Virus record (IMG/VR): IMGVR_UViG_3300044724_009564
Location: 1-29,353 of that record
Direction: 5' to 3' (one strand)
Length of the DNA: 29,353 nucleotides
From: a virus
Taxonomy: Duplodnaviria > Caudoviricetes
Every line of letters begins with the position of its first letter. Positions within the stretch are counted from its first letter, which is position 1. A program made the translations under genes and the position numbers. Positions 1 to 22,737 of this stretch are shown in pieces. The notes under the pieces were generated by a model, which saw only the letters and a list, made by a program, of their open reading frames with translations, was not told where the DNA came from and ran no database searches.

Positions 1-266
1 GGTATGTCCCACTCCACTGGGTCCACATCTGTTATGCCCAATAGGTAACAGACCAATGACGAACCTGCACTACCACGTGTCATGTGTGGTATGTCCCTTG
101 TCATTGCTATGATATCACATATTTGGATGAAGTAGTCTACGAAACGTAGTTGAAGGATGATGCGAGTCTCCTCGGCTAGCCTATGCGTGTATTCTTCTGT
201 GCCTGGACATTGCCTAATGAATCTATCGTACAGCCTTGTTATGTCGTTCAGTTCTTGGTCTTTCAT
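1..266 (-). CDS. dnaE: DnaE (DNA polymerase III alpha)-like protein lacking the PHP domain; 3' end runs off the window (not in the ORF track)
   Basis: Manual translation from ATG at 266: MKDQELNDITRLYDRFIRQCPGTEEYTHRLAEETRIILQLRFVDYFIQICDIIAMTRDIPHMTRGSAGSSLVCYLLGITDVDPVEWDI... It matches the DnaE segments Y..RL..E...I....F..YF and RGS.A.SLV.Y.LGIT..DP. Confidence 0.85.
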   Translation of the reverse strand, partial: MKDQELNDITRLYDRFIRQCPGTEEYTHRLAEETRIILQLRFVDYFIQICDIIAMTRDIPHMTRGSAGSSLVCYLLGITDVDPVEWDI

Positions 267-300
267 TTGCCTATGCTTTTATGTTTGCCTGTTATTGCCT
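267..300 (-). repeat. Three AGGCAA direct repeats in the leader of the DnaE-like gene
   Basis: ttgcct on the + strand at 267-272, 285-290 and 295-300; the last repeat in the minus-strand reading (267-272) abuts the ATG. Confidence 0.7.
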
Positions 301-326: not shown

Positions 327-1010
327 TTATGAAGCAGAAACTTTTTGACGTAATTTATTTTTTGGAATCTCAATATCTCTCTTATCGCATGCGGCACTGA
401 TCACACAAGTGTCGCACAGAGGTGATCTTGATTTACAAACAAGTTTTGCATGTGTTATCAACCACATGTGAGCACCGTATTTGTATTTGCTTGGTGTGGT
501 GTCATTGACCGTAATAGATGCTTTGCCTTCGTCGAGGCTGTCTGCCCAACCAAGACGCCACAACATCCTGAACACGTGGGTGTCCACTGCTATGTGTGGT
601 TCGCCAAAAACGAACCTCATCACTATGTCAGAACTCTTACGTCCAACTCCTGGCAGTGTCATCAGTTCTTTCTGTGTGCTTGGCACACGACCATCAAACT
701 TCTCCAAAAGCATTTTACTTGTGGCAAGTATGTTTTTAGATTTTGCATTGAACAAGCCTGCAGGTTTGATTGCTTCTATGATCTCATCCTGTGATAGTTT
801 GAGCATGTCTTCAGGCGTGTCTGCCAGTGCAAAAAGTTGTCTACAAGCGACCGCTGTCCTTTTGTCTTGCGATTGTGCAGATAACATCACTCCTATTAGG
901 CTTGTGTATGCCTTGGAGTATATTTTTGCTTTAGGTTTTTTGTTTGAGTAGTTTGGATATAGAGAACTTAATTTCTCGTATATATGGTTGATGTCATTAC
1001 TGTTCTTCAT
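327..1010 (-). CDS. nth: Endonuclease III (HhH-GPD DNA glycosylase/AP lyase with 4Fe-4S cluster)
   Basis: LSAQSQD, HhH motif LPGVGRKSS with catalytic Lys, VDTHVFR with catalytic Asp, C-x6-C-x2-C-x5-C cluster (CKSRSPLCDTCVISAAC). Confidence 0.95.
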   Translation of the reverse strand: MKNSNDINHIYEKLSSLYPNYSNKKPKAKIYSKAYTSLIGVMLSAQSQDKRTAVACRQLFALADTPEDMLKLSQDEIIEAIKPAGLFNAKSKNILATSKMLLEKFDGRVPSTQKELMTLPGVGRKSSDIVMRFVFGEPHIAVDTHVFRMLWRLGWADSLDEGKASITVNDTTPSKYKYGAHMWLITHAKLVCKSRSPLCDTCVISAACDKRDIEIPKNKLRQKVSAS

Positions 1011-2436
1011 CTGAGTGCAGTTCGTTTAAGAGTTGTCTCAGTTTACCGCCCTCGACTGTGGCTTTCACTTTTCCTATTGTGTCACCTTTTGTTGGATCAG
1101 GAACTTCTGGCCTAGCGTCTGTTGGTGTGCCCCCTCCTGTTACCTTAGATGTCTTTTTGAGATTATCGTATATTGTACTTCTCTGTTTGTCAAACTGTTT
1201 GTATTCTGGATCATCCGCCAAGTCTCTGATACGTAAACTGTCCACGTCAAACTCTAGATCCACTTTCTGTCCAACACCAGAACTTGATCTTGTTTTCATG
1301 AACTGTATCTGATACCTGCCACGTTCTTTCATTGCTCTTGATGTGAATATACCTATCACATTGTCAGCAGTCTGTATCTTAGAGAGTCCACCTGAGATGT
1401 GACTGTGATCAAACTCTATCTCTTCAACCGATGCCCTGTTCAACTGTGATGCAGTTGCCAACACGCATTGTTTCTCCACGACCAAGTTTCTCAGTTCTTC
1501 AGACACGTACTTGTCCTTGATAAACAAGTCCGCTGGCGATATCTTTTTACTCTTTGGCATCATGAGATCCAGGTAGTCAATCAGTATACAATCAATTTTT
1601 TTCTTGTTCTTAAGTTCTAGTTCTTTCAGATAAGTTCTCACATCCAACACGTTGCTACCACTTGGCAAGTATTTGATCTGCAAGTTTCCTGCTTTCTTCT
1701 TCAACATCTTGACTTTCATCTCAACGTTCTCTATCTCAGGAAACACTTTCTTTGTTGGAATGTTTGTCATCATCGCATCAAGCCTCATCGCTGTCAGTTG
1801 TTCACTCAATTCAAAAGAAATGTAACAAACGTTCAGACCAGCCAGTGCCCAATTAACCGCAAGATTCTGCAAGAACAAACTCTTACCTGCGCCTGATCCA
1901 CCTGCAAAGATGTTTAGTTCTCCGCGGTTGAAACCGCCAAACAGTTTCTTGTCTAGGTTATTCCAGCCTGTGCTGATCTGTCCGTTGTTTGCCTTGAGTG
2001 CCTCAAGTCTTCCCTTGGGATCCTCAAAGTAGTCTGTACCGAGATCACGTGTGAGTCCCACGTTGACTGCGTCCTTGACCATGTCCTCGACCGGAGCATA
2101 GTCGCCCTTCTCCAACATGTCTGCCGACTGTAGTATCGCACGTTCAAGTGCCTTATGTCTCGAGAATGTTTCAAATTCATCCAACAACCAATTGAAATGG
2201 CTTGGGTCCAAGTCCTTTGCTGACTTCAACTTGATGTCATGTTTTGCGTTCACCTGTTCTACGTCAGGCATCACTTTGTATTCATCCATGTAGTCCTTGA
2301 CGAACTTTGCGATTGGTTGCAGTTTACGATCAAATGATTCAGGTTTGAATATGTTCTGTGCCCGTGCGAAAGATTCCGCATCTGCTAGAAGCATCTCTAT
2401 ATAAAGTTTCTGTACATCAAAAGTATATTCAGACAT
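997..2436 (-). CDS. gp41: DnaB-family replicative helicase (T4 gp41-like)
   Basis: Walker A GGSGAGKS, YISFELS, Walker B ILIDYLDL, TASQLNR, KTRSS; adjacent to primase. Confidence 0.92.
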   Translation of the reverse strand: MSEYTFDVQKLYIEMLLADAESFARAQNIFKPESFDRKLQPIAKFVKDYMDEYKVMPDVEQVNAKHDIKLKSAKDLDPSHFNWLLDEFETFSRHKALERAILQSADMLEKGDYAPVEDMVKDAVNVGLTRDLGTDYFEDPKGRLEALKANNGQISTGWNNLDKKLFGGFNRGELNIFAGGSGAGKSLFLQNLAVNWALAGLNVCYISFELSEQLTAMRLDAMMTNIPTKKVFPEIENVEMKVKMLKKKAGNLQIKYLPSGSNVLDVRTYLKELELKNKKKIDCILIDYLDLMMPKSKKISPADLFIKDKYVSEELRNLVVEKQCVLATASQLNRASVEEIEFDHSHISGGLSKIQTADNVIGIFTSRAMKERGRYQIQFMKTRSSSGVGQKVDLEFDVDSLRIRDLADDPEYKQFDKQRSTIYDNLKKTSKVTGGGTPTDARPEVPDPTKGDTIGKVKATVEGGKLRQLLNELHSDEEQ

Positions 2437-3328
2437 TTAAATTCCCACAGTGTATTTTACAACATTCATGAGCAGAAGTAAATTGTTTTGTTGACTCGTA
2501 AAAGTCTTTTACCGCTTTGTCATCCAGTATATCTTTAAGATTATGGTTTTTGATGTTGTATTTTTTGTTTGTTGGTTTGAACACACTTTTATATTTGTAC
2601 CTGTATGTTCCCATGTAACAGCAAGGATAAAAATCACCTTCGCTGTCTATGTACATTTCTATGCAGTCCTTTTTAAGGAGACAAGCAGGGATCATTTTAC
2701 CATTTGTTTCGTTTGGGTCAACTTCTTTCTGTCTGATCTTATCTTGTGTGTATTCCTTGTCTGGCATTAGGTCTTTTCGGTCATCCCACCTATGACTGTG
2801 TACTATTTTGAATTCATCAAAGCCAAGTTCTTTACTAAGACTCCTAGCCTGATCTATTTGATGTTGGTTGTGTTTGAAAACTATAAATTTCCAAATCGTT
2901 TTGAAACCTTTCCCGGTGGTAGAGTCTACTGCTGTCATTATACTTTTCCATTTTGCATTCTTACGATAAATGTGGTTTGTATCCTCAAGACCGTCTATTG
3001 CGAATGTGATAGAATCTTTATCATCCAGTATTGCTACTAACTTTTCCCACCACGCCTTGGTCTTAGCACTGCCGTTGGTAGCAATGTCTAGTGTGTTTTT
3101 GTTCGTTTTTAATCTAGAACAAAGTTCAATGAATCGCGAATGATAAATTGGATCTCCTCTGTTGCCGCATATCTGCAAAGTGTTGTTGTTGCCTAAAAAT
3201 CTCACGATATCATCTACATCAATTTCGTGCAGTAATCTTTTATTAAATTTTTTTTCAAACCAAGTACGGTCACAAAGAGGACACTCCAAAGTGCATTTAC
3301 TGGTTGGTTCAATATGAAATCTAGCCAT
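2429..3328 (-). CDS. Radical SAM protein with SPASM/twitch-like C-terminal region
   Basis: CxxxCxxC (CTLECPLC), GNRGDP, ATNGS, FAIDG, and C-terminal YIDSEGDFYPCC ... CCKIHC. Confidence 0.88.
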   Translation of the reverse strand: MARFHIEPTSKCTLECPLCDRTWFEKKFNKRLLHEIDVDDIVRFLGNNNTLQICGNRGDPIYHSRFIELCSRLKTNKNTLDIATNGSAKTKAWWEKLVAILDDKDSITFAIDGLEDTNHIYRKNAKWKSIMTAVDSTTGKGFKTIWKFIVFKHNQHQIDQARSLSKELGFDEFKIVHSHRWDDRKDLMPDKEYTQDKIRQKEVDPNETNGKMIPACLLKKDCIEMYIDSEGDFYPCCYMGTYRYKYKSVFKPTNKKYNIKNHNLKDILDDKAVKDFYESTKQFTSAHECCKIHCGNLNV

Positions 3329-4334
3329 ACATTTTTTTCTTGAGATCTATCTTCAATTTGCTGTCTTCTGTAGTCTTCAATATTGATTGCAAAACAAATA
3401 ATCTACCAAATTTTGCAACTGCATCCGCCACGTCGTTCACTCCATTTGGCCATTCAGGAAATGCAACACTCCAACCAAATTCTTTTGCTTGGTCAATCAG
3501 TTTGTCTCCGGGTGCATCTCTGTCCGGTACAACTATCACTTTTCTACCCAACCCATCTATGAGATCTCGTTGTGTATCATTTATCTCACTACCAAGTATG
3601 CTCACACCAGAAACGGCTATTGCATCAAACGGCCCTTCGGTGACGATCACAAATTTACGTGTCCAATCCTGTGCATCCATGTTGAACACATAGCCTGGCC
3701 AAACATCTGTGTAGTACTTGACACTATCAGACTCCTCAAAGATTCTTCCTGTGAACCCTACCACCTCGCCCTTCCAGTAGAACGGAATCAACAGTCTCTG
3801 ATTCACGTCCCACACCTTGTCTGGCGAGTACATGAAATCATACCAGTCAGCGCCTATACCCCTGCTCTCAAGATACTTCAGTAGTGCGTCTATCTTTTTC
3901 CATTGTGGTTCTGTCAAGTCATTTGCCACGTACTTTTCTAACCACACGTCTAGTTTGTGTGTGTTCTTTGGTAGAGTTTTCTTGTTGAATGTTACAAATT
4001 TCTTTTTCTCATACTTGACATCACTCTCTTCTTCACGCAGTGCTTCTATGGCCAACTTACGTATTGTGTCCTCGGGTATTCCAATGTAACTCATGAACTG
4101 CCTCATCTTATAGGTAAGTTTACGTCCTATGATGTAACTGGCCTTGAATCCACAATTGAAACAGTGATAACTCACAGTGCCGTCAGCACTGGTCATTATA
4201 CCGCCACGTTTTTTCTTATCTGCTGTCTCTCCGTTGTGAACGCAACAAGGAGCATTGAAACTAGTCCAACCGCTAGGAGTCTTTTTCCTACCCGTAGGCA
4301 GGCTCGTCAGAATAGTAGATTGGATCAGGTTCAT
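3321..4334 (-). CDS. gp61: DNA primase (T4 gp61/DnaG-like; Zn finger + TOPRIM)
   Basis: N-terminal CCVH...HCFNCG zinc-binding region, IPF...GFTGR, KY, TOPRIM motifs EGPFDA and PDRD. Confidence 0.9.
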   Translation of the reverse strand: MNLIQSTILTSLPTGRKKTPSGWTSFNAPCCVHNGETADKKKRGGIMTSADGTVSYHCFNCGFKASYIIGRKLTYKMRQFMSYIGIPEDTIRKLAIEALREEESDVKYEKKKFVTFNKKTLPKNTHKLDVWLEKYVANDLTEPQWKKIDALLKYLESRGIGADWYDFMYSPDKVWDVNQRLLIPFYWKGEVVGFTGRIFEESDSVKYYTDVWPGYVFNMDAQDWTRKFVIVTEGPFDAIAVSGVSILGSEINDTQRDLIDGLGRKVIVVPDRDAPGDKLIDQAKEFGWSVAFPEWPNGVNDVADAVAKFGRLFVLQSILKTTEDSKLKIDLKKKMYG

Positions 4335-5174: not shown

Positions 5175-5549
5175 ATGAACGAAATTTTTAACACACTTAG
5201 GGACAAGTTCCCGTTTCTCAGCCTTATACGAAAGGGTGATCTGGAGTATGTGGGCATAGTGCAGAATGAAGATGTCAATGTCATCAGTTTCTATGATTAT
5301 GGCAGGTTGATGATGCCACAAGACAAGATGAGATTCCTCAAATGCGGTGAGACTTGGTGGCATGAATCCAACCGTAAATTACCAATTAATATATTCCTAA
5401 AGGGTGAATTCCGTTATTTTAGATCTACATTGGTCACATTGAACTCCAAGGATGTTGAAATAGTCCACGGACCCACAGTCAAACTATCTGATATTTCAAA
5501 GAAACGGGTAAAACGAAGAACAATCCAATTAGTTCGTAGACCTACTTAG
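5175..5549 (+). CDS. Hypothetical protein (possible Sm/Hfq-like fold)
   Basis: 124-aa ATG ORF filling the gap between minus-strand genes; basic C-terminus. The fold suggestion is speculative. Confidence 0.7.
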   Translation: MNEIFNTLRDKFPFLSLIRKGDLEYVGIVQNEDVNVISFYDYGRLMMPQDKMRFLKCGETWWHESNRKLPINIFLKGEFRYFRSTLVTLNSKDVEIVHGPTVKLSDISKKRVKRRTIQLVRRPT

Positions 5550-5701
5550 GCTTTTTTGTAATTTATCCCACAAACTTTTTCAACATATTTTGTCAAGTCG
5601 TTATTAGGTTGATAGGATAACATTTCTGATCTTAAGGCTGAACTACGATTGGATTTCTTACGTTTTTTGGTGATTGTTTTCTTAGGTTTTTGATGTTGCA
5701 T
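5546..5701 (-). CDS. Small basic hypothetical protein, 51 aa (not in ORF track)
   Basis: MQHQKPKKTITKKRKKSNRSSALRSEMLSYQPNNDLTKYVEKVCGINYKKA; fills the only gap, and its stop overlaps the stop of the convergent gene. Confidence 0.5.
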   Translation of the reverse strand: MQHQKPKKTITKKRKKSNRSSALRSEMLSYQPNNDLTKYVEKVCGINYKKA

Positions 5702-6272
5702 CAAAACTATATTTACCTCTAGATATCAAATTCATCTGCACCACTATCGCCTGTGCGTATGCGACTGCGTGTGATTTCTTGAAGAAGTAGGATCCATCCG
5801 TGGGTTTGATCCAAACCTCTTTCATGATGTCCACCCAGTCCTTGTGCATCAGGTGTCTCTTCGCAGGACGTATGATAGCCAATACAGCCGCAAGTTGTTC
5901 TATTGTCCTTGGTTCAAGTTTGGACACTATGTTGAAATGGCCATTTAGGTGGAAAAGGTTTTCCACTGTCTTTGGATCTTTCAGCATGTCCCAATCTGGC
6001 TCCTGGATCATCAGTTCAACTAATTCCTGCTCTGATTTCACATCCTTGTATATGTTAACATTGAGGCAGTCTACCTTGAAGTAGCCTCTGTCCTCTGCCT
6101 GTTTGTAATCAAGTGTCGCGTGCCCTGTCACAGGGTGTTCTGGCACTGCATGGAAGTATACTCCTGTTTTGTGCTTCTCTGACTTACCCTCTTTGATTAT
6201 AGACGCCGGCGTGTGTTTGAATAACTTCAACGTGTTGTCTCTGTCATAGAAATCTATATCCACATCAGGCAT
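5682..6272 (-). CDS. dnaE: Miniature DnaE (C-family polymerase) catalytic-core protein, 196 aa
   Basis: Collinear DnaE motifs: MPDVDIDF, KHKTGVYF, GYFKVDCL, LEPRTIEQLAAVLAIIRPA, YFFKKSHAVAYA. Confidence 0.85.
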   Translation of the reverse strand: MPDVDIDFYDRDNTLKLFKHTPASIIKEGKSEKHKTGVYFHAVPEHPVTGHATLDYKQAEDRGYFKVDCLNVNIYKDVKSEQELVELMIQEPDWDMLKDPKTVENLFHLNGHFNIVSKLEPRTIEQLAAVLAIIRPAKRHLMHKDWVDIMKEVWIKPTDGSYFFKKSHAVAYAQAIVVQMNLISRGKYSFDATSKT

Positions 6273-6436
6273 TATAATTCCTCAGCAATTCCTAAAAGTT
6301 CTGCAATTAATAATCCACCTGCAAGCCAAACGATTCCTCCCCCTAATAGTACTGCGGCACATCCGGCAATACGAACAATGCTTTTTACCATGCTTATGTA
6401 AAAATGTTTTTTGCTTATGTCAACTGGTTCAGGCAT
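6272..6436 (-). CDS. Small membrane protein, 54 aa (not in ORF track)
   Basis: MPEPVDISKKHFYISMVKSIVRIAGCAAVLLGGGIVWLAGGLLIAELLGIAEEL; TAATG stop/start overlaps at both ends; long hydrophobic stretch. Confidence 0.8.
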   Translation of the reverse strand: MPEPVDISKKHFYISMVKSIVRIAGCAAVLLGGGIVWLAGGLLIAELLGIAEEL

Positions 6437-6669
6437 TAGTGTACGCTTCCTTTCTCTTTTGAATCATGTTTGATAAATTCTTCTTTGGCTCCAGGAGACA
6501 ATAGTTCGACCACATCAAGCATCTTCCTATAACCTTCACTGCTTCTTATCTCTTCAGTCATCTTGGGCATTATGATCTTTCCTATAGCACCATCTGGTTT
6601 GATTGTTATTGCTATGTCTCCGTCGTCAAACTCTAGGTTCTCTGCTATCTCTAAATTCACTTTAGACAA
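6436..6669 (-). CDS. Hypothetical protein, 77 aa
   Basis: ATG ORF translationally coupled to both neighbours. Confidence 0.7.
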   Translation of the reverse strand: MSKVNLEIAENLEFDDGDIAITIKPDGAIGKIIMPKMTEEIRSSEGYRKMLDVVELLSPGAKEEFIKHDSKEKGSVH

Positions 6670-7345
6670 TCTTGGCCTCTCTTGCTGTGTCCTGTACCAA
6701 CATTAGATCCGCTGGATAACTTTTCAACTTGCTTGGCCAGAAACTTGGGTTGATAAATTTTTCTATCATTTGTAATTGTTCGTCGTTGAATGATTTTAAC
6801 ATCCTTTTGCCTGCGTTGCAACCTAACAGCAACCAAGGACTTATCTTGCCCTGTTGGATGTGTGCCACTGCCCTGTTGGTGTTGACCAGTCTGAAGTAAT
6901 CTGACCACTGTGCGTTCTGTTCTGTGGCCCAGTCCATCATTGTGGCTATGCTTCTCTGTAATGCGGCCTCAACAGGTTCCGTCTTCAGTGCTTCAACGAG
7001 ATACAACTCGTATAGGTCATCCCTCGACCAATGATCCAGTTTGACCTTTGATCGTAACACATAGTCTATGTACTTGTCTGGGTACAAGGGGTTGATGTGC
7101 ATGATGAATCTACCAAACTTGACAAACGCATTGTAGTAGGCACTCTTGACAAAATCATCATATGTCTTTGGTTTTGAATTGTGTTGGTGTATCTGATAGA
7201 ATCTCTGGAACACCATGAATGCATTCACCACCCATTTCTCATCACGTTGCAGATATCTACGTTTTGGTTCGCACAGGTGCACTTGCAGTGTCCGTGCCTT
7301 TGCGAACTCCTTGTCACAGTATGTGCATTTATTTGTTGTGGCCAT
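6662..7345 (-). CDS. Hypothetical protein with N-terminal C2HC/C2H2-like zinc finger
   Basis: CTYCDKEFAKARTLQVHLC (C-x2-C-x3-F-x8-H-x-C); 227 aa in the replication operon. Confidence 0.7.
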   Translation of the reverse strand: MATTNKCTYCDKEFAKARTLQVHLCEPKRRYLQRDEKWVVNAFMVFQRFYQIHQHNSKPKTYDDFVKSAYYNAFVKFGRFIMHINPLYPDKYIDYVLRSKVKLDHWSRDDLYELYLVEALKTEPVEAALQRSIATMMDWATEQNAQWSDYFRLVNTNRAVAHIQQGKISPWLLLGCNAGKRMLKSFNDEQLQMIEKFINPSFWPSKLKSYPADLMLVQDTAREAKIV

Positions 7346-8552
7346 TTTGTCCTGTCATGTAATTTAATAAGTTTATATGTTGTTGATTTTCTTTAAGTGT
7401 TTTCTGATTGTGTTTCAAAATTGGTATCATCTGCGCATACATCGAATTGATCTCCTCCAATGACTTTGAACAGATAGTCTCTATTATTTTTGTTATCATC
7501 TGTATTCGATCATACCCGTCATAATTATCATAACTTTCATCCCAAAATTTATCAAAACTTTTATATCCCATGTCGTGCAAGTAACTCAACGATCCTACAT
7601 TTCCGTTAATGCAAAAAGGAGAACCGTGGGCGATCGCCTTCCATGTTTTTTCTGTGATATGAATGCCGTCATTGTGAATTTTTGTTTCTGATGATATCCA
7701 AAGGAAAGCATTATCAAAAATATTTTTTTCATTGTACTGATCTATTTCCCAGTGCTGATTTACTTTGTTATCAAATGACAATGGCAACATGTTGGTAAAT
7801 TTTTTTTTGTTTTGATGCCAACTTTTGAAGTTTTGCATGAATTCCTCTGAAGTAATTGCGTCATCTACCCAGTTCGAATTTTTTGATTCAACTATCTCTT
7901 CGTATTGTTCACAACTGACATTGCCTTTGTCTAGTAACCGGGTATTCCATAAATTGTAAATTATTCCATATCTGTGATTTTTTAAGTTTCCCCTACAGAG
8001 GCAATTGTAATGTTTTACAAATTTTTTTTCTTGTATGTCGATCTTATTGGCTACCAATTTCATGATTTCTATGAAGTAACAATATTGTATAAAAGTTGCT
8101 TTTATTTTGTATCCTCTTTGCTCAAGGAAACTGATTTGTCTTTCGTGTATGTTGTTTGGTACGACCCACGTTAGGTTCTCTTCGGGCACGCCTCTTCCAG
8201 TAAAATGTCTTACCATGGTCGAATATTTGATCTCTCCAAAATCCGGAGTAATGTTAAATTTATTTTTCTCCCAAGCGAAGGTGTCAAAAAGATCCCATGC
8301 TTCTGTGGTTTGGAAAATTATGGGTTTGACAATACCCTGTTGCATATATAAAAAAATTTTATTGGGAATTTTTTCGATTACATGCTTTATGTCAAAGGGT
8401 CTGCATATAAAAAGTGCGAGGAATGTGGATGATTGACCGTCAAACTGTTCGGCTTTAACGAAGTTGAATTCTTTGAACAGTTGTTTGCTTGGGTCAACGA
8501 ATATTTTTTCAATTCCATTTAGATCCGGCTCTATGATGTTAATTGTTTCCAT
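7329..8552 (-). CDS. Putative GT-B glycosyltransferase (GT10/fucosyltransferase-like C-terminal motif)
   Basis: SSET...ITEKTWKAIAHGSPF..G resembles the alpha-1,3-fucosyltransferase motif EN....YITEK...A...G..P...G. Confidence 0.5.
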   Translation of the reverse strand: METINIIEPDLNGIEKIFVDPSKQLFKEFNFVKAEQFDGQSSTFLALFICRPFDIKHVIEKIPNKIFLYMQQGIVKPIIFQTTEAWDLFDTFAWEKNKFNITPDFGEIKYSTMVRHFTGRGVPEENLTWVVPNNIHERQISFLEQRGYKIKATFIQYCYFIEIMKLVANKIDIQEKKFVKHYNCLCRGNLKNHRYGIIYNLWNTRLLDKGNVSCEQYEEIVESKNSNWVDDAITSEEFMQNFKSWHQNKKKFTNMLPLSFDNKVNQHWEIDQYNEKNIFDNAFLWISSETKIHNDGIHITEKTWKAIAHGSPFCINGNVGSLSYLHDMGYKSFDKFWDESYDNYDGYDRIQMITKIIETICSKSLEEINSMYAQMIPILKHNQKTLKENQQHINLLNYMTGQNGHNK

Positions 8553-8988
8553 GAGCTTCTATTAACTCCTCTAGTTCTCTGTCAGTGATCACTTTGTCTA
8601 ATGTTTCAAGATCTGATTCCTTCCATGTTGGATAAATCTGTTGTAATTGCTTCAAACTTTTATTTGGAACACGTTTCATTGGCTTCAACCATGGATGAAA
8701 CTGCTGTTGCAGTGCACCGCACATAGCAGTCAGTATCCAAAGTAATTTTTTGTGTTTACCCAGCGTAAAGCAGTGTTTGTTGACACACTCATTGACCATT
8801 TCCACGTAGTGCTCCACAAAGAACTTGTCCTTCGATGACACATTTGATGCATATCTCATCAACATGTATGGTGAATACAAAGACCTTTCTTTATCATCAA
8901 TCCTGTCAAAGTAATCTTTGTTTCGGAAGTCCACTGCCTTAAGGCCATTCCTTAGATCAAAAAATTTCCTGTGATTATCTTTTGTCAT
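8539..8988 (-). CDS. Putative clamp-loader small subunit (T4 gp62-like)
   Basis: YSPYMLMRY.S...EMVNE...HKKLLW...FHPWLK pattern and size resemble gp62-type proteins. Start moved to ATG 8988 (MTKDNH), which gives a short overlap with the upstream gene. Confidence 0.55.
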   Translation of the reverse strand: MTKDNHRKFFDLRNGLKAVDFRNKDYFDRIDDKERSLYSPYMLMRYASNVSSKDKFFVEHYVEMVNECVNKHCFTLGKHKKLLWILTAMCGALQQQFHPWLKPMKRVPNKSLKQLQQIYPTWKESDLETLDKVITDRELEELIEAHGNN

Positions 8989-9736
8989 AAAACTTCTTGA
9001 GTATAAACTCATTTTCAACAACACTCAACCAATTCATGCCACCTGCGTACTTGTAGTGCACCTGATCGTCCTCTAACCAGTCTGGGTTGGTGGAAGTGAT
9101 ATGGTTAATCAACTGTGTCTTAATTTTGTTTGTTTTGTCTAACTTGTCGTATATCTCGCTTGTTATCTCGTCGAGCATACCATCTGCCTTTATGTGCGGG
9201 GTGGGAGGTTTATGGTAATCGTAGTATGTGTTCCAATTGAAAGGAATCTTCTCAGTGGACAAAAAATTAATTGCATTATTGATTTCAAAGAGATTTTGTA
9301 TTACGATATTTGTTTGATCATGTGTGTCGTATAAATTGGTAAACATTTTCTGCGTCTGCACGTTGTTGAGCCAACTGCCTGCCATGCCACCACTGTGTAT
9401 CCAGTTACTGAACTCTGAGCGTCTTTGGAAATTATAATTTTCAAAGACTGTTGTTTTTGAACAACTCACATCTATTCTGTTCAGTCCACTGTATTGCAAG
9501 TAGACATAATCTGGATTGCCATTTACTTTTGTCCATTCTAATAACCTGTTTGTAATGTATCTGTTTCCAGCACCCCCGGATGACAAGTTGTAATAGATAT
9601 CTGATTGATCACGCCATATCTCGTCATTGGGATCACCAGACATACACAAAAATTCATCTCTGTTTTTTGACAGACAATCTCTGATGACATGGTGCAGTCC
9701 TAGGCCGTTGCTACAGCCAATGATTAAAATCTTCAT
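8975..9736 (-). CDS. SGNH/GDSL hydrolase-like protein (possible O-acyl esterase/transferase)
   Basis: IGCSNG (block I), NLSSGGAGN (block II), DQVH (DxxH). Confidence 0.65.
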   Translation of the reverse strand: MKILIIGCSNGLGLHHVIRDCLSKNRDEFLCMSGDPNDEIWRDQSDIYYNLSSGGAGNRYITNRLLEWTKVNGNPDYVYLQYSGLNRIDVSCSKTTVFENYNFQRRSEFSNWIHSGGMAGSWLNNVQTQKMFTNLYDTHDQTNIVIQNLFEINNAINFLSTEKIPFNWNTYYDYHKPPTPHIKADGMLDEITSEIYDKLDKTNKIKTQLINHITSTNPDWLEDDQVHYKYAGGMNWLSVVENEFILKKFYDKR

Positions 9737-9975: not shown

Positions 9976-10462
9976 AATCTACTTGTTCACATTGTCGTGA
10001 TATGTCTTTTACAAAGTAAGCACACATCGGTTTAGGACCGTTTTGTAATGGTACTGCTAACATTTGCCCAGATTTTATTTTTGGGAAATACCACTTGACT
10101 TCTGTGTAGATGTCAACAACATCGATGGGCATGAAGTCAGGTTTGGAACTAGACAACGGATTGAATGTGAATGCGTCAAATCCTCGATCATTCAAACTAG
10201 TTATTGGTAACACATGCATTTCGGATTGCCCTGCTTCACCTATCAACATCTTCCAGTCTAGAGGCATCTTTATCTTGTGATTGCCTATTTCCAATACGGC
10301 CGCTGGAGCGTTGAAGCTCTCCAGGAATATCAATGGTATGTAGAAGAAATCAGGATTGGCTGGATCTGAATTGTCAAGCACAGCAAATCGCAGTTTATCA
10401 TCGACCCATTCGGGTATCTTCTCCAACTTGTATGTTCTGTTATCCAGTGTAAGGATTTTCAT
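9959..10462 (-). CDS. Hypothetical protein, possible inactive Hint-fold
   Basis: 167-aa beta-rich ORF overlapping the end of uvsW; see findings for the Hint-like pattern. Confidence 0.7.
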   Translation of the reverse strand: MKILTLDNRTYKLEKIPEWVDDKLRFAVLDNSDPANPDFFYIPLIFLESFNAPAAVLEIGNHKIKMPLDWKMLIGEAGQSEMHVLPITSLNDRGFDAFTFNPLSSSKPDFMPIDVVDIYTEVKWYFPKIKSGQMLAVPLQNGPKPMCAYFVKDISRQCEQVDYGSVW

Positions 10463-11906
10463 AATTTATCTTTTCTATATTATACGGGTAATTGGCCTCT
10501 TTGTAAAACTTTTTCCTTGCCCCGAGGTGTCTTTTCGCGAACTTGCAACTGCTGGTAATGTCCCAAATCTGTACACTGTCCTTGTCCTCTGCTTTCCTTA
10601 TACCACGTCCTATGCTCTGTATGACCCTGACAAATGACTTGCCTGGTTCTATAAGGACAAGATTAAAAATCCTAGGAATATTAATGCCAACAGCGGCAAC
10701 TCCATATGTGGCAATAATAACTTTATTTTGGCTAGTAGATACTTCATCGTATTGCTCCTTCCTGTCTGTGTTTTTAGTAGACCCTGACACGAACACAGCG
10801 TCTTTTATTTTCTTTTCCAAGATCTCACCTGCTGATATCCTATCAACTAGTATCAGTGTGTTTCCTGAAGTTGCAATGTCCTGTATCGTGTTTGCAACCC
10901 AAGTCATTCTGGTTGTGTCAGTAGTTAACCATTTCAATTCTTCGCCATAAGTTTTGAACTGTGGGTGGTCTTGTGTTTGTAAAACGTTGACATGACAGTT
11001 TGCAAGAACTCCCTTGTCCTGTAGTTCACTGGCCTGTATCCTGTTTGCTACTTCTCCTATACTGCATTTCAATCCCATGAATTCATAATCCGCCTTTGGC
11101 ACAGTGCCCGTCAGTCCCCAACGTATACCGCAGTGTGCGAATGGCCCGGTTAGCAATCTCTTCAACACATCTGCTTTTGCCATGTGTACCTCATCTATGA
11201 TGACTGTGTTGATTCCTTGTATTGCTTCCAAGAAGTCTGTTGTGTGTTCGTCCTTGCTTTTCTTTTCCAGCACGTTCAGTGACTGCCAGGTTGCAATAGT
11301 GTTGTATCTCCCCAGTTCCTTCCTGTCTCCGTAGTACACACCAACATCGAGGTTGCAGGCAAGGAAGTCCTCCTCCGTCTGTGTCACAAGACTTTTGTTT
11401 GGAACAATGGTCAGCGTCCTACCGTATGGTTCTACAAGTTGACACAAGGCCGCGGTTATTATTGTCTTTCCTGCGCCCGTGGCTATTTCCTGTATGCACT
11501 GTGGATTCTCAATGAACTTGTTTATTGTCTCTACTTGGTAGTCTCGCAACTGTATTGGCTGTCCTGCACAAGGATGTTTATCTGGCCAGGTGATGTGTGC
11601 GAGATAATCTTTGTCTACTGCCTTAAATTCAAAATTGTGTTGTGGTCTTTTGTCTTCGAAGTCCACATACACACCTCCCTCTTCTAGTATTGGCAGTATC
11701 TGGTCAACAAGGTTGAGATATGTTGTACCACCCAGACCAAAGAAACTAACCTTACCGTCCCATCTGCCCAGTTTCACAGCAGGCAAATGTCTCGCATATG
11801 GGATCTCGTATTTGAATTTGTTGGAGAGTCTCTTACGCCATTCGAGGCTAAGGTTCTCAAACTTCACGTTGACTTCGTCTTTTATTACTAGTTTACAACT
11901 GCTCAT
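10440..11906 (-). CDS. uvsW: UvsW-like superfamily 2 DNA helicase
   Basis: GRWDGK, LRDYQ, ATGAGKT, DEVH, GLTGT, VGINIP, QSIGRGIR. Confidence 0.9.
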   Translation of the reverse strand: MSSCKLVIKDEVNVKFENLSLEWRKRLSNKFKYEIPYARHLPAVKLGRWDGKVSFFGLGGTTYLNLVDQILPILEEGGVYVDFEDKRPQHNFEFKAVDKDYLAHITWPDKHPCAGQPIQLRDYQVETINKFIENPQCIQEIATGAGKTIITAALCQLVEPYGRTLTIVPNKSLVTQTEEDFLACNLDVGVYYGDRKELGRYNTIATWQSLNVLEKKSKDEHTTDFLEAIQGINTVIIDEVHMAKADVLKRLLTGPFAHCGIRWGLTGTVPKADYEFMGLKCSIGEVANRIQASELQDKGVLANCHVNVLQTQDHPQFKTYGEELKWLTTDTTRMTWVANTIQDIATSGNTLILVDRISAGEILEKKIKDAVFVSGSTKNTDRKEQYDEVSTSQNKVIIATYGVAAVGINIPRIFNLVLIEPGKSFVRVIQSIGRGIRKAEDKDSVQIWDITSSCKFAKRHLGARKKFYKEANYPYNIEKINYENPYTG

Positions 11907-13305: not shown

Positions 13306-13782
13306 ATGAAAAAGGTAAAGAATAAAGCGGTAAATGTAAGGAAGCAACTTAAGGTCAAGTTGGAAAACACCGCGACCAGATACAAGAACACAAAAGGATT
13401 CAAGCCAACAGAACAACAGGCCTATCAATGGTTTAGATACATCAATAGATGTCTGTTCAATGGTAGATTACCAATAGTTCCATTGCATGTTAGGAAATTG
13501 CACAAGGATTGGGGAAGATGTGTAGCAAATTGGGACAATAGGAAAACACCAAAAGGTAAATTTGATCAAAGGGTTATCCCTTATCATATAGATGTTGATT
13601 ACTATATTGAACTACATTGTAAGTTTCCAAGATGGAGAGATTTCGTAGAAACACTGGCCCATGAGATGGTACATCTATATCAGATGACCTGGATAAAAGA
13701 TCCATACGCCAATCATAATGCAAACTTCTTTGCTTGGAAAAATAAATTTAGGATGGCGGGCTTAGGCCTATCAAGGTGTTAA
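13306..13782 (+). CDS. SprT-like zinc metalloprotease
   Basis: N..LFNG.L, WGRC, TLAHEMVH (HExxH), downstream NH...F..W; start moved to ATG 13306. Confidence 0.8.
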   Translation: MKKVKNKAVNVRKQLKVKLENTATRYKNTKGFKPTEQQAYQWFRYINRCLFNGRLPIVPLHVRKLHKDWGRCVANWDNRKTPKGKFDQRVIPYHIDVDYYIELHCKFPRWRDFVETLAHEMVHLYQMTWIKDPYANHNANFFAWKNKFRMAGLGLSRC

Positions 13783-14520
13783 CACCTGCTCAAATTCAGC
13801 ATAATTGATTACTTTGCTATTACCTAGGTCTGTTCCTGTCTGTAGGTATTTCAAGTATTCCGGAGGATTATCGTGAACAACTGTGTAATTCACGTATGGA
13901 CGCATCTTCAACATGTCTCTGAATTGTTTAAGCCATCCTTCAAAAATTTTATCATCGTTACGTTCACCATAGCAATCGGTATCTTGGTAGATGTTGTTGA
14001 GTTCGCCTTTACCATATTCTCTGAAATCAAAACCAATCAAGTAAATGTTTTTATGTCCATGTACACCTGCTGTCCAGAATGCGGCATTTCCTGATATCCA
14101 GTGGGGGTTGTTTGGTATGAGGTGTAACATTCCTTTACTCTGCTTCCTATTGACTTCAAGGGATGGTGCGTAGTGGATTGTTTTTGTGCCCACCTTGTCT
14201 GCCACCATTTGTTGAGTCATCTTTGTGTCAACGGAAAATATGAAATCGGGCATGAAGTCTCTGTACAAAGCATTGCATCCGTATGTTTGTCCTGACGATT
14301 TTAATCGACTGAGATCAAAATCCTTACGCGATGGTCCGTTTCCTATGCAATATGCGTTACCCCTAGGCACGGCTTTCACCCTGTCTTCAAACCACTCTTC
14401 TTCTTTGATTCTTTTTCCATTTCTAATAATTGTCCTAACAATTACAGTTTCTCCTTTGTAAGGTTCAAATTTAATTGTCTCTACTAGCCTTTGGCCTCCT
14501 AATTTAATTTCTTGCATCAT
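13771..14520 (-). CDS. CstII/Maf (sialyltransferase-like) glycosyltransferase fold protein
   Basis: CIGNGPSR, GCNALYR...PD....VD, SG..A, IYLIGFDF motifs typical of GT42/GT29/Maf-like nonulosonate transferase folds. Confidence 0.6.
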   Translation of the reverse strand: MMQEIKLGGQRLVETIKFEPYKGETVIVRTIIRNGKRIKEEEWFEDRVKAVPRGNAYCIGNGPSRKDFDLSRLKSSGQTYGCNALYRDFMPDFIFSVDTKMTQQMVADKVGTKTIHYAPSLEVNRKQSKGMLHLIPNNPHWISGNAAFWTAGVHGHKNIYLIGFDFREYGKGELNNIYQDTDCYGERNDDKIFEGWLKQFRDMLKMRPYVNYTVVHDNPPEYLKYLQTGTDLGNSKVINYAEFEQVLTP

Positions 14521-15389
14521 CGTAAGTATTTCTCCTGTAATCTTTTTTTAATCCTTTTCCATGGTAGACCAGCGGCAATTTCATCTTCAAACCATTCCGT
14601 GTATGCAAGTTTGTGTGCCCACGAGTGTCTGTTTGGCATCGCTGGTGTGTTTATGTCCGTTAAATTTAGATTGCCAACATCGTGGCACAAACTAGATTCT
14701 GACACAAACACCGGAATGCCTTGTATCACTGCCTCCATGGCAGGATTGCTAGAATGATTTACCACAGCCCATGTTCGACCTAGAGTGGCCTTGAAATCAG
14801 TATCATCATATGTCCTGTAATCTCGTTTTGGCAGTCTAATTTTGACATTGGTAAATTTATTTTCGTCAAAGGTGATGTGATTCCTAGGGTGCGGTCTCAC
14901 TAATATTGGTCTTGTTGTGTATTTTCTGATTTCACGTATTTGTTGTTCTATCCATGTTGACATTTTTGGCAGTCCCTTCCATTGCTCTGATGAGTCATGT
15001 TGTCCACATATTACAATCATATCTCCGGTGGGGTTCCAAGGTCTCAGTTCGTGATCAAATAATGGCCAACGCTTGTCATCAAAATCTTGATTGGCGAAAT
15101 CAGCATTTCTGTTTATGCCGTTGATACCAACTTTGAAACTCTTATTCCTACGTAGGCCACCGACCTCAAGCACAATTACAGGTTTGCCTTTTGATCTGTA
15201 TTCGTTCCATATCTGTTGGTATCCCATCATTCTGCCTCGCCACAGCACACTCCAGATCACAGCCACGTCTGCATTAGCAGATCTGTTGACCACAACATCC
15301 TCTCCGGCATCTCGCAAACCTTTTATGAATGCTTTGAATATTTCTTTACTGTTCAGAGGTCCGTATTCCGTCCATACCTCAACTTTCAT
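14517..15389 (-). CDS. KpsS/KpsC-like (capsule synthesis-type) glycosyltransferase, paralog 1
   Basis: LEVGGL, CGQ, VRPHP, VVNHSSNPAMEAVIQGIPVF. Confidence 0.6.
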   Translation of the reverse strand: MKVEVWTEYGPLNSKEIFKAFIKGLRDAGEDVVVNRSANADVAVIWSVLWRGRMMGYQQIWNEYRSKGKPVIVLEVGGLRRNKSFKVGINGINRNADFANQDFDDKRWPLFDHELRPWNPTGDMIVICGQHDSSEQWKGLPKMSTWIEQQIREIRKYTTRPILVRPHPRNHITFDENKFTNVKIRLPKRDYRTYDDTDFKATLGRTWAVVNHSSNPAMEAVIQGIPVFVSESSLCHDVGNLNLTDINTPAMPNRHSWAHKLAYTEWFEDEIAAGLPWKRIKKRLQEKYLR

Positions 15390-16285
15390 TACACTTTTTT
15401 CCAGTATTCGAGATCGTGTACACTTTTAGTGGCCTCTAGTGTTTGGGGACGGAAATCGTTGCGTTTGCTTTTTCCTGCTGATTTACGATTGCCCTTCATG
15501 TGATCCATGTATAGTCCTAGTTCGCTGTTGATGAAAACGTGATGGCCTTTGACACCTTTCCAATAACCTATGTCATTTATTTTGATATTTTTTTCTCTTT
15601 GATATTTTTTTGCGAGGTGCCATAGTGTAGAACAATCAGTCCATTCCAGTAGTTTGAACATCTCATCTGTGATGTACATGTCCTCCCATTCATTACAAAG
15701 GTTTTGTATCTCCGGATTCCTCAGATTGTACCCCACGAATCCGCATTCTGGATACTTGCCTCCGTCTTTGAGATTTGGATTTTCACGTCCTAGGTATGTC
15801 ACCATTGTGTCCTGAGGAAGTAGGCCTTCTAGGAAACTTTTTGGCATTGGTCGAAAAGTGTATGTGTCGGCGTCTAGCCATACCACATAATCATAATCGG
15901 CGGAATTCTTAAGAGCATGGGTGACGCAGAAAACTTTGTTGGCGAACCTTACGGCATTCCACAAGAAAGATCCTTTGTTTTTGTCGTTACCGCCTTTGAC
16001 CTGTAGTTCTGCGGGACGCCTGACACCACCCGGTATTTCTTGCAATTCTCCATTTGCAACGGGATCATCCTTGTGTCTGGTCTTGAATTTCAAAAGTTCC
16101 GGCTGTACGCTGTGGACGTCATGCCATTCAACTCGAGGATGATCAAACACGTCTTGTTGTTGTGCTTCATGGTAAACTGCAAGGGTGATGTCCTCGGGCC
16201 AGTATTTGAGGACGCTTTCGACCGCCCGCTTGGCGTATTGATTCCATGTGCCTGGTTTATACGATGTCAATACTTTGATCTTCAT
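15389..16285 (-). CDS. GT-A fold glycosyltransferase
   Basis: AVRFANKVF, VWLDADT (DxD), ECGFVGY, DHMKG.RK. Confidence 0.7.
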   Translation of the reverse strand: MKIKVLTSYKPGTWNQYAKRAVESVLKYWPEDITLAVYHEAQQQDVFDHPRVEWHDVHSVQPELLKFKTRHKDDPVANGELQEIPGGVRRPAELQVKGGNDKNKGSFLWNAVRFANKVFCVTHALKNSADYDYVVWLDADTYTFRPMPKSFLEGLLPQDTMVTYLGRENPNLKDGGKYPECGFVGYNLRNPEIQNLCNEWEDMYITDEMFKLLEWTDCSTLWHLAKKYQREKNIKINDIGYWKGVKGHHVFINSELGLYMDHMKGNRKSAGKSKRNDFRPQTLEATKSVHDLEYWKKV

Positions 16286-16291
16286 TTGTCC

Positions 16292-16297
16292 TATTTA
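16292..16297 (-). promoter_or_regulatory. Late-type TAAATA element 6 nt before ATG
   Basis: Minus strand TTAAATA-ggacaa-ATG (ATG at 16285). Confidence 0.55.
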
Positions 16298-16298
16298 A

Positions 16299-18059
16299 TT
16301 AAAAACTCATTTCGTATTTTTTTATCCAATCGTTCACGATCCATGCTGGCACCAAAGCCTTTCCTGCTTTTTGACTAGCCTTAATCATGTCTAATTTGCT
16401 TTTATCTTGCATTGCATCATTGTAGAATTTTTTTAATTTTTCGTCAACATTTGTTGTAAGCCAAATTCCTATAGGGACGGTCCATCCGGTTTTTCCTTTG
16501 TTGATTATTTCATTTGGTAGGAGGCCATTGTAGGCTTTTTTTGTTAGGATTTTTGTGTCAGATTTATCTGATCCCATTTTGATATTGGTGTGCATACTCA
16601 TGCAATATTTCATGAAACTTTTTGTTGCTAAAGGGAAACGTCCCTCCATGCCATATGCCATTCCGTACTTGTCATTCCTATTGAACATCTCTTCAGGCAC
16701 CTGTGCAACACAATCTAAGGCCATGTAAGAGCCAATGGGATCGTCAGGATTCCAAAGTTCGTCACTAAAGCATTTTCTGAATTCTTCTATAACAACTTCA
16801 TCGCTGTACGAACTTTCGGTGAGTCGTAAAGGACGCTTGATTCGTTTCAACCACAGGCGAAGCACGTCGTCCCACGATTCTAATTTTGTCTTGCCAATTT
16901 GTTTTGACAGCCATTCCGGATTTTTCATTTTCCAGTATTTTGGATAGCCTGCAAGTATTTCGTCTCCCATGTCTCCGGCCAGTGTTACTATTATTTCTTT
17001 GTCAGAAATAAATTTGTTTGTGTAACAATACATACTCATACTTGGATTATAGATGGGTTGTTCCATGAAATAAATCGAGTCATCCCAACTGTTCATAAAA
17101 TTTTCTGGTGTAATTTTAATTTCCGTGTGATTGAAATTATTCTGCTTCGCAAGTATTTCTGCACACCTGGCATCCTCATTATAATCTTCATCAGACACAA
17201 CACTTGGATACATTTTGTTTGTGAAGGAGTTTACTTTGCCTTTTATCTTGTTAAGTTCATAAGCCACCAGGCTTGAATCTAAACCACCACTCAAAAAGAC
17301 CCCGATCTTTCTCTGGCCTATACTGCACATCTTCACTGTCTTGTTTGCCTCTTGCCTGAACTCTTCTGGGTTGAAAGTACGTGTATTGGAGCATTTGATA
17401 TATTGCCTGTGTTTACTTTTTATTCTCTTTGTAGGTATGTCCCACACAATGGTCTCTCCTGGGAGCATTTTCTTTATACCAGAAAAGAAAGTGTGGCTGA
17501 GAGCGTTTATTCCTGTCCTCTGCATGAAACTTACAGACATCTTGTCAATCTTCTGACATCCGGGCACTTTGTCTATCATACCTTTGATTTCTGAGCCAAA
17601 TACTAGACCTTCTTTTATTTGAGCATAGAATAATGGTTTTATGCCCGCGTGATCTCTAGACAACCACAGTTCCTGTATTTTTGGTTTGTAGTAGGCAAAA
17701 CCGTGCATGGAATCGATCTCTTCAATAAATTTCAGTCCGTATGTGTCGAGGCCCCATGCAAGTAGTTCAGTGTCTGTGCCTGTAGTGTCTACGAAGCCTT
17801 GTGATCTGTATTTCTCTTTGAGCTCGTAATAGTTGAAAATTTCTCCATTGTACACAAGAGTATTACCTGCAGGTGTGTGCCATGGTTGTAATGACAGTTT
17901 AGGATCGCTCATTATTGAAAGGAGATTATGTCCAAACGTGACTTGTTTTAGAGGATCTTCCCATACCTGTTCACCGTCGGGACCTCTGTGTCTACACCAG
18001 TTTATAAAGTTTGAGATATAGTAAGGATCCCATGATGTGATTCCATAAATTCCACACAT
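16299..18059 (-). CDS. asnB: Asparagine synthase (glutamine-hydrolysing)-family amidotransferase
   Basis: N-terminal MCGI (Ntn Cys), HRGPD, YNGEIFN, RDHAGIKPLFY, LSGGLDSS, GDMGDE, EGRFP, K.GW; GGAG RBS upstream. Confidence 0.92.
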   Translation of the reverse strand: MCGIYGITSWDPYYISNFINWCRHRGPDGEQVWEDPLKQVTFGHNLLSIMSDPKLSLQPWHTPAGNTLVYNGEIFNYYELKEKYRSQGFVDTTGTDTELLAWGLDTYGLKFIEEIDSMHGFAYYKPKIQELWLSRDHAGIKPLFYAQIKEGLVFGSEIKGMIDKVPGCQKIDKMSVSFMQRTGINALSHTFFSGIKKMLPGETIVWDIPTKRIKSKHRQYIKCSNTRTFNPEEFRQEANKTVKMCSIGQRKIGVFLSGGLDSSLVAYELNKIKGKVNSFTNKMYPSVVSDEDYNEDARCAEILAKQNNFNHTEIKITPENFMNSWDDSIYFMEQPIYNPSMSMYCYTNKFISDKEIIVTLAGDMGDEILAGYPKYWKMKNPEWLSKQIGKTKLESWDDVLRLWLKRIKRPLRLTESSYSDEVVIEEFRKCFSDELWNPDDPIGSYMALDCVAQVPEEMFNRNDKYGMAYGMEGRFPLATKSFMKYCMSMHTNIKMGSDKSDTKILTKKAYNGLLPNEIINKGKTGWTVPIGIWLTTNVDEKLKKFYNDAMQDKSKLDMIKASQKAGKALVPAWIVNDWIKKYEMSF

Positions 18060-18075
18060 TAGTCTATTATCTCCA

Positions 18076-19056
18076 TTATAATCCTAACTTCGCTTTAAAT
18101 CTTTTGAACACAGTGCCGTCACGTATTTCTTTCTCGCTCCATAACTTGTAGCCTAGGTCGTGTACCCACTGAGTCCTGTCTGGGTATTCCGGATTTTCTA
18201 TTTTTGTGAGATCTTTGTTCGCAACTGGCCAACTGAGTGCCAGATCTGAAGTATTGAAAGTTGGAATACCACGGATGCAAGAATCTACACCGGCTGTAGA
18301 ATTATGTGTAACCACAGCGTGTATGTTCGTGATTGCTTCCTGGAAATGGAATCTATAATATTTTTTTTCTTCGCCGTTGAAATATTTTTGACCTATTACA
18401 ACTTCAACATCATCTGGAAATTCGCCCATCCTGTTTTCCATTGCAACAACATGATTAGGATGTGGTCGCACTATGAATTTTCTTTTAGTAAGTGGTCGTA
18501 ATATTTTATAAACGTTCAAAAACCAGTGGATTGGATCCAGTTCGTTCATGCTCCAGTTGTCGCTAGGTTGTAACACAAACATTATTGGATCGTCTGGTTG
18601 AGACTTCCTCCATGGTTCGTATCTCACCTTGAACATATTTCTCAACATCTCCCACCTGTCTCCCGGTGAATTGTCACTAAGAAAATTTCCGTTGTTCATT
18701 GGCGAGTAGAGGGAAACTCTCCAGTGATGGTTAGGTCCATGCACGTTTCCAAAACTGCTCATTAGTCCTCCGTCAAAGGTTATAATGAATATGCCTTTCT
18801 TTTTGGCACGTTCTACAAGATCTCTTCTCCTGCCTTTGGTGTGGTGTTTTTGTTTATCTCCACCATAACCAAACATGCATCCTATTGGTGCTGTAGGTTC
18901 CATCTCGTCCTTCCGCCAATCTCCTGTCATGTGTTCGTTAACCATGATGGGATTGTCACCACATGCTGTGATACCTTCAGCCATGTGTTTCAAAAGGTCG
19001 TAACTTGCCCCTCGCCTTCGATCTTTAACAGTCCTCCTAAATATTTCAACGTCCAT
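18076..19056 (-). CDS. KpsS/KpsC-like glycosyltransferase, paralog 2
   Basis: FDGGL, VLQPSDN, VRPHP, VVTHNSTAGVDSCIRGIPTF; start moved to ATG 19056 (MDVEIF) to remove a 185-nt overlap. Confidence 0.6.
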   Translation of the reverse strand: MDVEIFRRTVKDRRRGASYDLLKHMAEGITACGDNPIMVNEHMTGDWRKDEMEPTAPIGCMFGYGGDKQKHHTKGRRRDLVERAKKKGIFIITFDGGLMSSFGNVHGPNHHWRVSLYSPMNNGNFLSDNSPGDRWEMLRNMFKVRYEPWRKSQPDDPIMFVLQPSDNWSMNELDPIHWFLNVYKILRPLTKRKFIVRPHPNHVVAMENRMGEFPDDVEVVIGQKYFNGEEKKYYRFHFQEAITNIHAVVTHNSTAGVDSCIRGIPTFNTSDLALSWPVANKDLTKIENPEYPDRTQWVHDLGYKLWSEKEIRDGTVFKRFKAKLGL

Positions 19057-20831: not shown

Positions 20832-20837
20832 TCCAAG

Positions 20838-20870
20838 TAGTTATGCCTTATTTTGTGCCACCTATAAATA
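20838..20870. promoter_or_regulatory. Divergent late-type elements: TATAAATA (+, 20863-20870) and TAACTA (-, 20838-20843), each 6 nt from an ATG
   Basis: + strand TATAAATA-ttggcg-ATG(20877); minus strand TAACTA-cttgga-ATG(20831). Confidence 0.6.
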
Positions 20871-20876
20871 TTGGCG

Positions 20877-22714: not shown

Positions 22715-22737
22715 AATAATAATTATACTATAATATT
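22715..22737. promoter_or_regulatory. 23-bp AT-rich divergent promoter region
   Basis: Minus strand TATAATTA-ttatt-GTG(22714); plus strand TATAAT (22729-22734) 3 nt before ATG 22738; no convincing -35. Confidence 0.4.

Follow-up and report, generated by a model that had tools for sequence, protein, structure and literature searches.

A 196-residue phage protein that is very probably the C-terminal unit of a split, minimal DNA polymerase III alpha

The closest described system to the gene studied here is the split, minimal DNA polymerase III alpha (Pol III alpha) of jumbo phages, whose members include RaK2 YP_007007279.1, Atu_ph07 YP_009611739.1 and PA5oct EST35_0220. The division of this polymerase into two separately encoded units was reported, from sequence, by Iyer et al. 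in 2021 (PMC7824862, section 3.4.1). In their account, a stand-alone protein of ~190 aa provides the Mg2+ and template binding of Pol III alpha, the NTP-binding N-terminal unit comes from a distant gene in the same genome, and the phages, of group 2.2, have a family B replicase. Within the open-licence literature, we found no biochemical or genetic test of the split mini-DnaE, and the accessible portions of PMC12926913, PMC12619734, PMC3919608 and PMC7318152 do not describe it. PF07733 has been recorded in 51.9% of PGC_A jumbo phages, its form not being specified in the accessible part of that paper (Weinheimer and Aylward, PMC9123017).

In this study, we analyzed a 29,353-nt stretch of viral DNA, the complete record IMGVR_UViG_3300044724_009564, which we refer to as the window. 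The two-gene arrangement being already published, one gene of the window adds a further member to a known family: it very probably encodes the C-terminal unit (C unit) of the split mini-polymerase that group 2.2 jumbo phages carry, the other half of this enzyme being here called the N unit. The gene was assigned to the minus strand because the plus frame is full of stops. The first-pass annotation had described a 196-aa open reading frame that starts at MPDVDIDF and carries four further motifs in order, and all were found on the minus strand, MPDVDIDF forming the first residues and being followed by KHKTGVYF (33-40), GYFKVDCL (63-70), PRTIEQLAAVLAIIRPA (121-137) and YFFKKSHAVAYA (162-173). The gene and its motifs are as follows.

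5682..6272, minus strand: putative C-terminal (metal/template-binding) unit of a split minimal Pol III alpha, 196 aa (P0001)
6252..6266, minus strand: D3-x-D5-x-D7, read as E. coli D401/D403/D405 (numbering from the accessible part of PMC3919608 and from the start of the structural range)
6069..6077, minus strand: K66-x-D68, matching E. coli K553/D555, with D68 as the third catalytic Asp (HMM alignment)
5859..5870, minus strand: R135-P136-x-K138, of which R135-P136 matches E. coli R639-P640 (HMM alignment)
5757..5780, minus strand: K165-K166-S167-H168...Y172, matching E. coli N757-K758-S759-H760...Y764 (HMM alignment)

Three kinds of search agree on the C-family assignment. The protein matches PHROG 11778, "DNA polymerase", over residues 3-186 with an E-value of 6.5e-65. 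A 92-sequence C-unit profile searched against the PDB retrieved C-family Pol III alpha chains only (best E 1.3e-5), aligning to E. coli residues 539-641 and 740-769. The AlphaFold model, with a mean pLDDT of 94.9, bore out the structural comparison with DnaE that the first-pass annotation had called for, since C-family chains ranked first: the best seven chains in VIA-align were all of this family (Z 6.1-9.5, rmsd 4.2-5.0, 192-195 residues aligned), the next unrelated chain having a Z of 4.0. The first 18 rows of the Foldseek output were likewise C-family chains, at weak E-values of which the best was 1.3e-3, with no match at E<=0.001. Pfam gave a sub-threshold finger-domain match only, and a PDB search with the single sequence gave chance MutH matches only.

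Relatives of the C unit are numerous. Those of similar length form 7083 clusters at 90% identity, and the window protein's own cluster has 2534 members; a quick tree was mostly unresolved and identified no sister with a known N unit. Among cultured phages, 96 records matched at E<=1e-3, the matches listed at that threshold being RaK2/Atu_ph07/PA5oct-like jumbo phages, partial records of such phages and two Alishewanella phages of 141 kb, Slicko01 (H100) and Slickus01 (H101), the former also with a weak N-unit match (E 1e-4). As the C unit is present in these 141-kb genomes, the system may not be restricted to genomes of more than 200 kb. One seawater metatranscriptome contained contigs that cover the gene at an identity of at least 85%, from which strand and expression cannot be read. 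A scan of 10 of the 64 parts of GTDB returned one match, on a contig of a metagenome-assembled genome titled Legionellales bacterium (PBLX01000009.1; L197) that bears the whole phage block, the C unit and an opposite-strand compact DnaE, and which is likely binned phage DNA.

The catalytic residues were assessed in the best 150 representatives of 50% clusters, of which 82 full-length sequences were retained. As the first-pass annotation had proposed, all three catalytic aspartates are kept: D3, D5 and D68 are invariant in these distant homologs (82/82), as are K66 and P136. D7 is found in 80 of the 82, H34, R135 and H168 in 81 each, K/R at position 165 in 81, K138 in 74 and Y172 in 71; K138 is a basic residue peculiar to the split family. 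Motif conservation among 80 close loci was not counted as evidence, because motif patterns had retrieved them. These loci together with the window yielded 70 distinct ungapped coding sequences, none with a stop codon, and the median dN/dS was 0.038 (maximum 0.061; 69 pairs against the window, which are non-independent and of which 9 are saturated). That the gene is a decaying piece of a full-length dnaE, for which its short length and nothing else speaks, is therefore close to impossible, being refuted by a dN/dS of about 0.04 and the lack of stops; the many clusters of similar length, and deletions that are internal and common to the family, point the same way. The earlier rejection of decay is thus supported, the aspartates being constant as well, and the C unit is not a frameshifted remnant of a full-length dnaE.

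The loss of the thumb, much of the fingers and the PHP, clamp-binding and OB regions was also described in the first-pass annotation, and the C unit is indeed without these. The thumb is reduced to 23-32 residues in C units, as against the 107 that lie between D467 and H575 of the Taq enzyme, and the stretch from P640 to K758, 117 residues in E. coli, measures 27-36. The C unit is also without the PHP and (HhH)2 domains, which are nearly universal among bacterial C-family members according to the accessible part of PMC3919608. The claim of intact palm motifs, on the other hand, has to be withdrawn. The C unit starts at about residue 399 of E. coli DnaE, and its structural match in VIA-align begins at E. 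coli 401, Taq 461 and PolC 971, so that everything preceding the DxD strand, including GRGS, is absent. The front half of the palm, which spans E. coli ~321-393 and carries GRGS, is missing from the 196-aa chain, leaving it with half a palm.

This bears directly on the possibility that the 196-aa protein is a whole mini-polymerase able to work alone. It carries the three aspartates on a single chain, its single-chain model is confident, and the N unit was not found in fragments of its clade. However, it has no GS motif: the triphosphate contacts of PolC given in the accessible part of PMC9224347 are two finger arginines, a tyrosine, K970 and the palm serine S895, and the match of our model starts only at 971. 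Moreover, the missing piece is a conserved gene of its own in complete relatives. We therefore regard a self-sufficient enzyme as very unlikely, and the stripped enzyme with an intact palm that the first-pass annotation had put forward gives way to its other suggestion, one subunit of a multi-gene split polymerase.

The N unit, of about 170 aa, constitutes its own PHROG, 11127, and a profile of N units aligns with E. coli 321-392 (E 0.009). By alignment and model, the halves are complementary, the N unit covering E. coli 321-392 and the C unit continuing from 401. Atu_ph07 and RaK2, which were chosen through their C units, both contain an N unit, and all four complete or closed environmental genomes chosen through their N units (G040, G050, G051 and G089) contain a C unit. 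PolB is present in all six of these genomes (6/6). In the phage collection, the C and N queries gave matching genus counts for Escherichia (34/34), Pseudomonas (11/11), Salmonella (8/8), Erwinia (8/8) and Xanthomonas (4/4), and nearly so for Klebsiella (11/10), the comparison being one of counts and not record by record. A C unit was held by 8 of 55 N-bearing contigs, most of which are fragments, and the N-bearing G078 (289 kb, estimated to be 80% complete) had none at E<=0.001. In the supplement on PA5oct, the first 12 places for each term contained no rows for the N or C gene. A chaperonin-like gene lies two genes after the N-unit gene in Atu_ph07 (L003), RaK2 (L004) and PA5oct (L473); the PA5oct annotation calls it so, and we read the genes of Atu_ph07 and RaK2 as GroES-like.

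Searches of the 29-kb window recovered no N unit and no PolB, so the check for a PolB replicase that the first-pass annotation had suggested is borne out by the complete and closed relatives and not by the contig itself. A stand-alone N unit was likewise absent from 39 contigs of the window clade searched with one N query, from 21 searched with the N profile and from five longer contigs, the largest of 122 kb; PolB was not found in the clade fragments tested, which included the five longer contigs and two more. All N-like matches in clade fragments were to a compact DnaE. Such absences are expected of fragments, because the two halves lie about 34-180 kb apart in relatives that have both; close relatives of 42 kb are rated 12% complete, and a metagenome scan showed no contig above 44 kb among the 80 matches listed. 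A search for contig overlaps that might tie the N unit or PolB to the clade revealed no core genes shared at high identity. From the relatives, we infer that the window clade has N-unit and PolB partners.

The compact DnaE is a second C-family polymerase, and its start lies at one edge of the window.

3..266, minus strand: second, single-chain, PHP-less DnaE, first 88 codons, cut by the contig end

Close relatives encode it as a chain of 563-576 aa without PHP, complete copies lying at L027:8606-10309, L010:6680-8377 and elsewhere; it keeps the RFLNP-R, DxD and RR motifs. Of 25 close relatives with sufficient DNA, 10 have the gene after that for DnaB, often together with an endonuclease III gene, and it was unmatched in Atu_ph07, RaK2, G040 and the 122-kb G096. 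Its likeness to the split halves is distant (HHalign probability 71% and 92%), and it is an accessory enzyme, neither parent nor partner of the 196-aa gene. Because it is accessory (10/25), it marks a variant genome and not a different protein family; some of these phages thus hold two unrelated-looking C-family enzymes. That the C unit of the window clade borrows its front half from this enzyme or from the host DnaE is highly improbable. The compact gene does start only 5.4 kb downstream in the window, but its product is complete in one chain and brings aspartates of its own, and the gene is not beside DnaB in 15 of the 25 close relatives and unmatched in three of the genomes named above (Atu_ph07, RaK2 and G040). 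Between DnaB and the compact DnaE lies an endonuclease III-like HhH-GPD glycosylase gene (327-1010, minus strand), which 9 of 25 relatives share and one metatranscriptome contig omits. The 35 bases preceding the compact DnaE start contain three AGGCA words (268-300, minus strand), three copies also being seen in 7 of 8 relatives, and a second cluster of three such words occurs near 17350-17408 (minus strand).

One putative natural fusion of the two halves was encountered. P0190, a protein of 375 aa from an ENA contig of 2.4 kb, carries N followed by C in frame with a 10-residue linker, and a full-length DnaE profile spans the junction. As a singleton from so short a contig, it may be an assembly chimera, and no relatives of it were found in viral contigs; it lends weak support to the reading of the two genes as split halves. 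A search for longer proteins is weak evidence on fusions, because it missed P0190. Its sole match, P0122, a singleton resembling a bacterial-phage chimera, was rejected.

The active site of the split enzyme departs from that of DnaE in the residues around the triphosphate. We take R390 and R396 of E. coli and R766/R767 of Taq to be triphosphate-binding arginines of DnaE; a literature search on R390 and R396 found nothing. The R390 position is occupied by E in 64 and by D in 1 of 65 N units. As 58 of the 65 terminate one residue past L392, R396 is without a counterpart; the residue past L392 is K or R in 64 of the 65. The helix of Taq R766/R767 is within the finger stretch deleted from the C unit, and the alignment has no conserved basic residue ahead of the first Asp of the C unit. 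With these presumed triphosphate-binding residues lost, ordinary polymerase chemistry is not guaranteed. N units have H161 and K/R162 in 65 of 65 cases, a count to which the search pattern partly contributed by selection, and the new basic residues may stand in for the lost arginines. H760 of E. coli acts as a sugar steric gate in modelling, according to the accessible part of PMC8485763, and the retention of the S759-H760 pair in the C unit favors dNTPs and speaks against a primase.

These residues are also the ground for considering that the heterodimer now serves as a non-canonical nucleotidyltransferase with a re-wired phosphate pocket, acting independently of a template, on a modified nucleotide or on a non-DNA acceptor. 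The uniformly acidic R390 position (65/65), the missing counterparts of R396 and R709/R710, the new near-invariant residues (H161, K/R162 and the C-terminal K/R in the N unit, K138 and K165 in the C unit) and a thumb cut to less than a third of that of Taq would all fit such a change. We nevertheless consider it unlikely, since the basic residues may do no more than make up for the lost arginines, the sugar gate, RP motif and O-helix motif are retained, and the gene lies among replication genes, away from the glycosyltransferase genes of the window. Were it correct, a heterodimer of about 370 residues with such an activity would be kept in every complete genome tested of the group, and in the window clade it would work alongside up to two other polymerases. 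The residue map, with its lost triphosphate contacts, new basic residues and kept steric gate, makes an activity test of N plus C concrete, and the closed genome G040 supplies a cognate pair.

The gene neighborhood places the protein among replication genes. A conserved block runs from UvsW through three conserved genes, the C unit, a convergent small gene and a virion protein to the primase and DnaB, and is syntenic in Atu_ph07 and RaK2, and in PA5oct for the annotated primase. The relevant features of the window are as follows.

10440..11906, minus strand: UvsW-like helicase of the conserved block
6662..7345, minus strand: 227-aa conserved neighbor, phrog_11058, with a weak C2H2 zinc finger; syntenic in Atu_ph07 and RaK2
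6436..6669, minus strand: 77-aa gene, the usual upstream neighbor in the close clade (39/39 relatives with enough upstream DNA)
6272..6436, minus strand: 54-aa variable insert, its stop overlapping the C-unit ATG (TAATG); 1/39 relatives
5175..5549, plus strand: 124-aa convergent neighbor, phrog_11637; syntenic in Atu_ph07 and RaK2
3321..4334, minus strand: DnaG-type primase, phrog_47, of the conserved block
997..2436, minus strand: DnaB/gp41 helicase of the conserved block

The translational coupling noted earlier stands as far as the junction is concerned: 59 of the 61 different upstream contexts among close relatives preserve the 1-nt overlap of stop and start at the C-unit ATG; the upstream gene that provides it in the window is itself an insert seen in one relative of 39. 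Further variable inserts within the replication block, both on the minus strand, occupy 7329-8552 (2/39 relatives) and 8975-9736 (0/39), and a radical SAM/SPASM gene (2429-3328) lies between primase and DnaB. Positions 13771-28518 form a large and variable island of genes for sugar and surface modification, arranged in blocks on both strands, among them an asparagine-synthase-like amidotransferase, a GDP-mannose dehydratase, GT61, a GT8-like gene, an FkbM methyltransferase and two sulfotransferase-like genes.

The fixed place of the gene between UvsW and primase-DnaB suggests work at the replication fork. Our preferred reading, to which we give about even credence, is that the C half pairs with the GRGS half of about 170 aa for distributive primer extension and hand-off to PolB. 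The N and C chains would meet where residues 393-399 link them in E. coli, rebuilding one Pol-beta-type palm in which two metal ions would be bound by D3, D5 and D68 and the triphosphate by the GRGS loop of the N unit, while H168 would keep ribonucleotides out. A few deoxynucleotides would be added per binding event, without proofreading; synthesis is expected to be short, non-processive and unproofread because the thumb, clamp-binding, OB and PHP domains are absent. Primers made by the primase would be extended and then handed to PolB, the least certain step, which was picked among several fork roles. The non-replicase role predicted in the first-pass annotation gains support from the PolB of all six complete or closed relatives.

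Primer extension and repair cannot be told apart by gene order, and a heterodimer devoted to gap filling, lesion bypass or the extension of UvsW/UvsX D-loops at restarted forks is possible, if doubtful. A heterodimer without proofreading or processivity domains would suit such work, UvsW is within the conserved block, and repair is one option named by Iyer et al. (PMC7824862). However, the nearby endonuclease III gene is variable, and a core function seems to fit better than optional repair because the pair occurs in 6/6 complete relatives and its catalytic residues are invariant. If the N and C units together polymerize DNA in primer extension or otherwise, they would reveal the minimum of Pol III alpha that is needed for catalysis and show why a phage with PolB retains a C-family helper.

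In comparison with the split minimal Pol III alpha of Iyer et al. (PMC7824862), with whose C unit we equate the window protein by the text description, size, motifs, DxD start and gene block are the same, and identity is 54% to the Atu_ph07 protein and 38% to that of RaK2. The window clade is a distinct and abundant part of the group 2.2 family, in whose tested fragments neither an N unit nor PolB was found. It also differs in that a genome with no further Pol III alpha domains is a trait given by Iyer et al., whereas the window has a second DnaE (3-266); part of the clade adds this PHP-less enzyme, which Atu_ph07, RaK2 and G040 do not match.

Like bacterial DnaE (E. coli 2hnh/5m1s, T. aquaticus 2hpi, M. 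tuberculosis 5lew) and PolC (3f2b), the C unit has the DxDxD, K-x-D, RP and F-x-K-S-H motifs, and its equivalent of D405 is kept, as in the DnaE groups and unlike PolC in the accessible part of PMC3919608. In contrast to these enzymes, it has one sixth of their length and is without PHP, N-terminal palm half, thumb, most of the fingers, clamp-binding and OB regions, and the split enzyme has replaced or lost the arginines that we presume to bind the triphosphate. Primer extenders such as B. subtilis DnaE3 and eukaryotic Pol alpha are large, multi-domain, non-proofreading second polymerases that work beside a main replicase. By analogy with them, the C-family helper proposed here would be paired with a B-family replicase.
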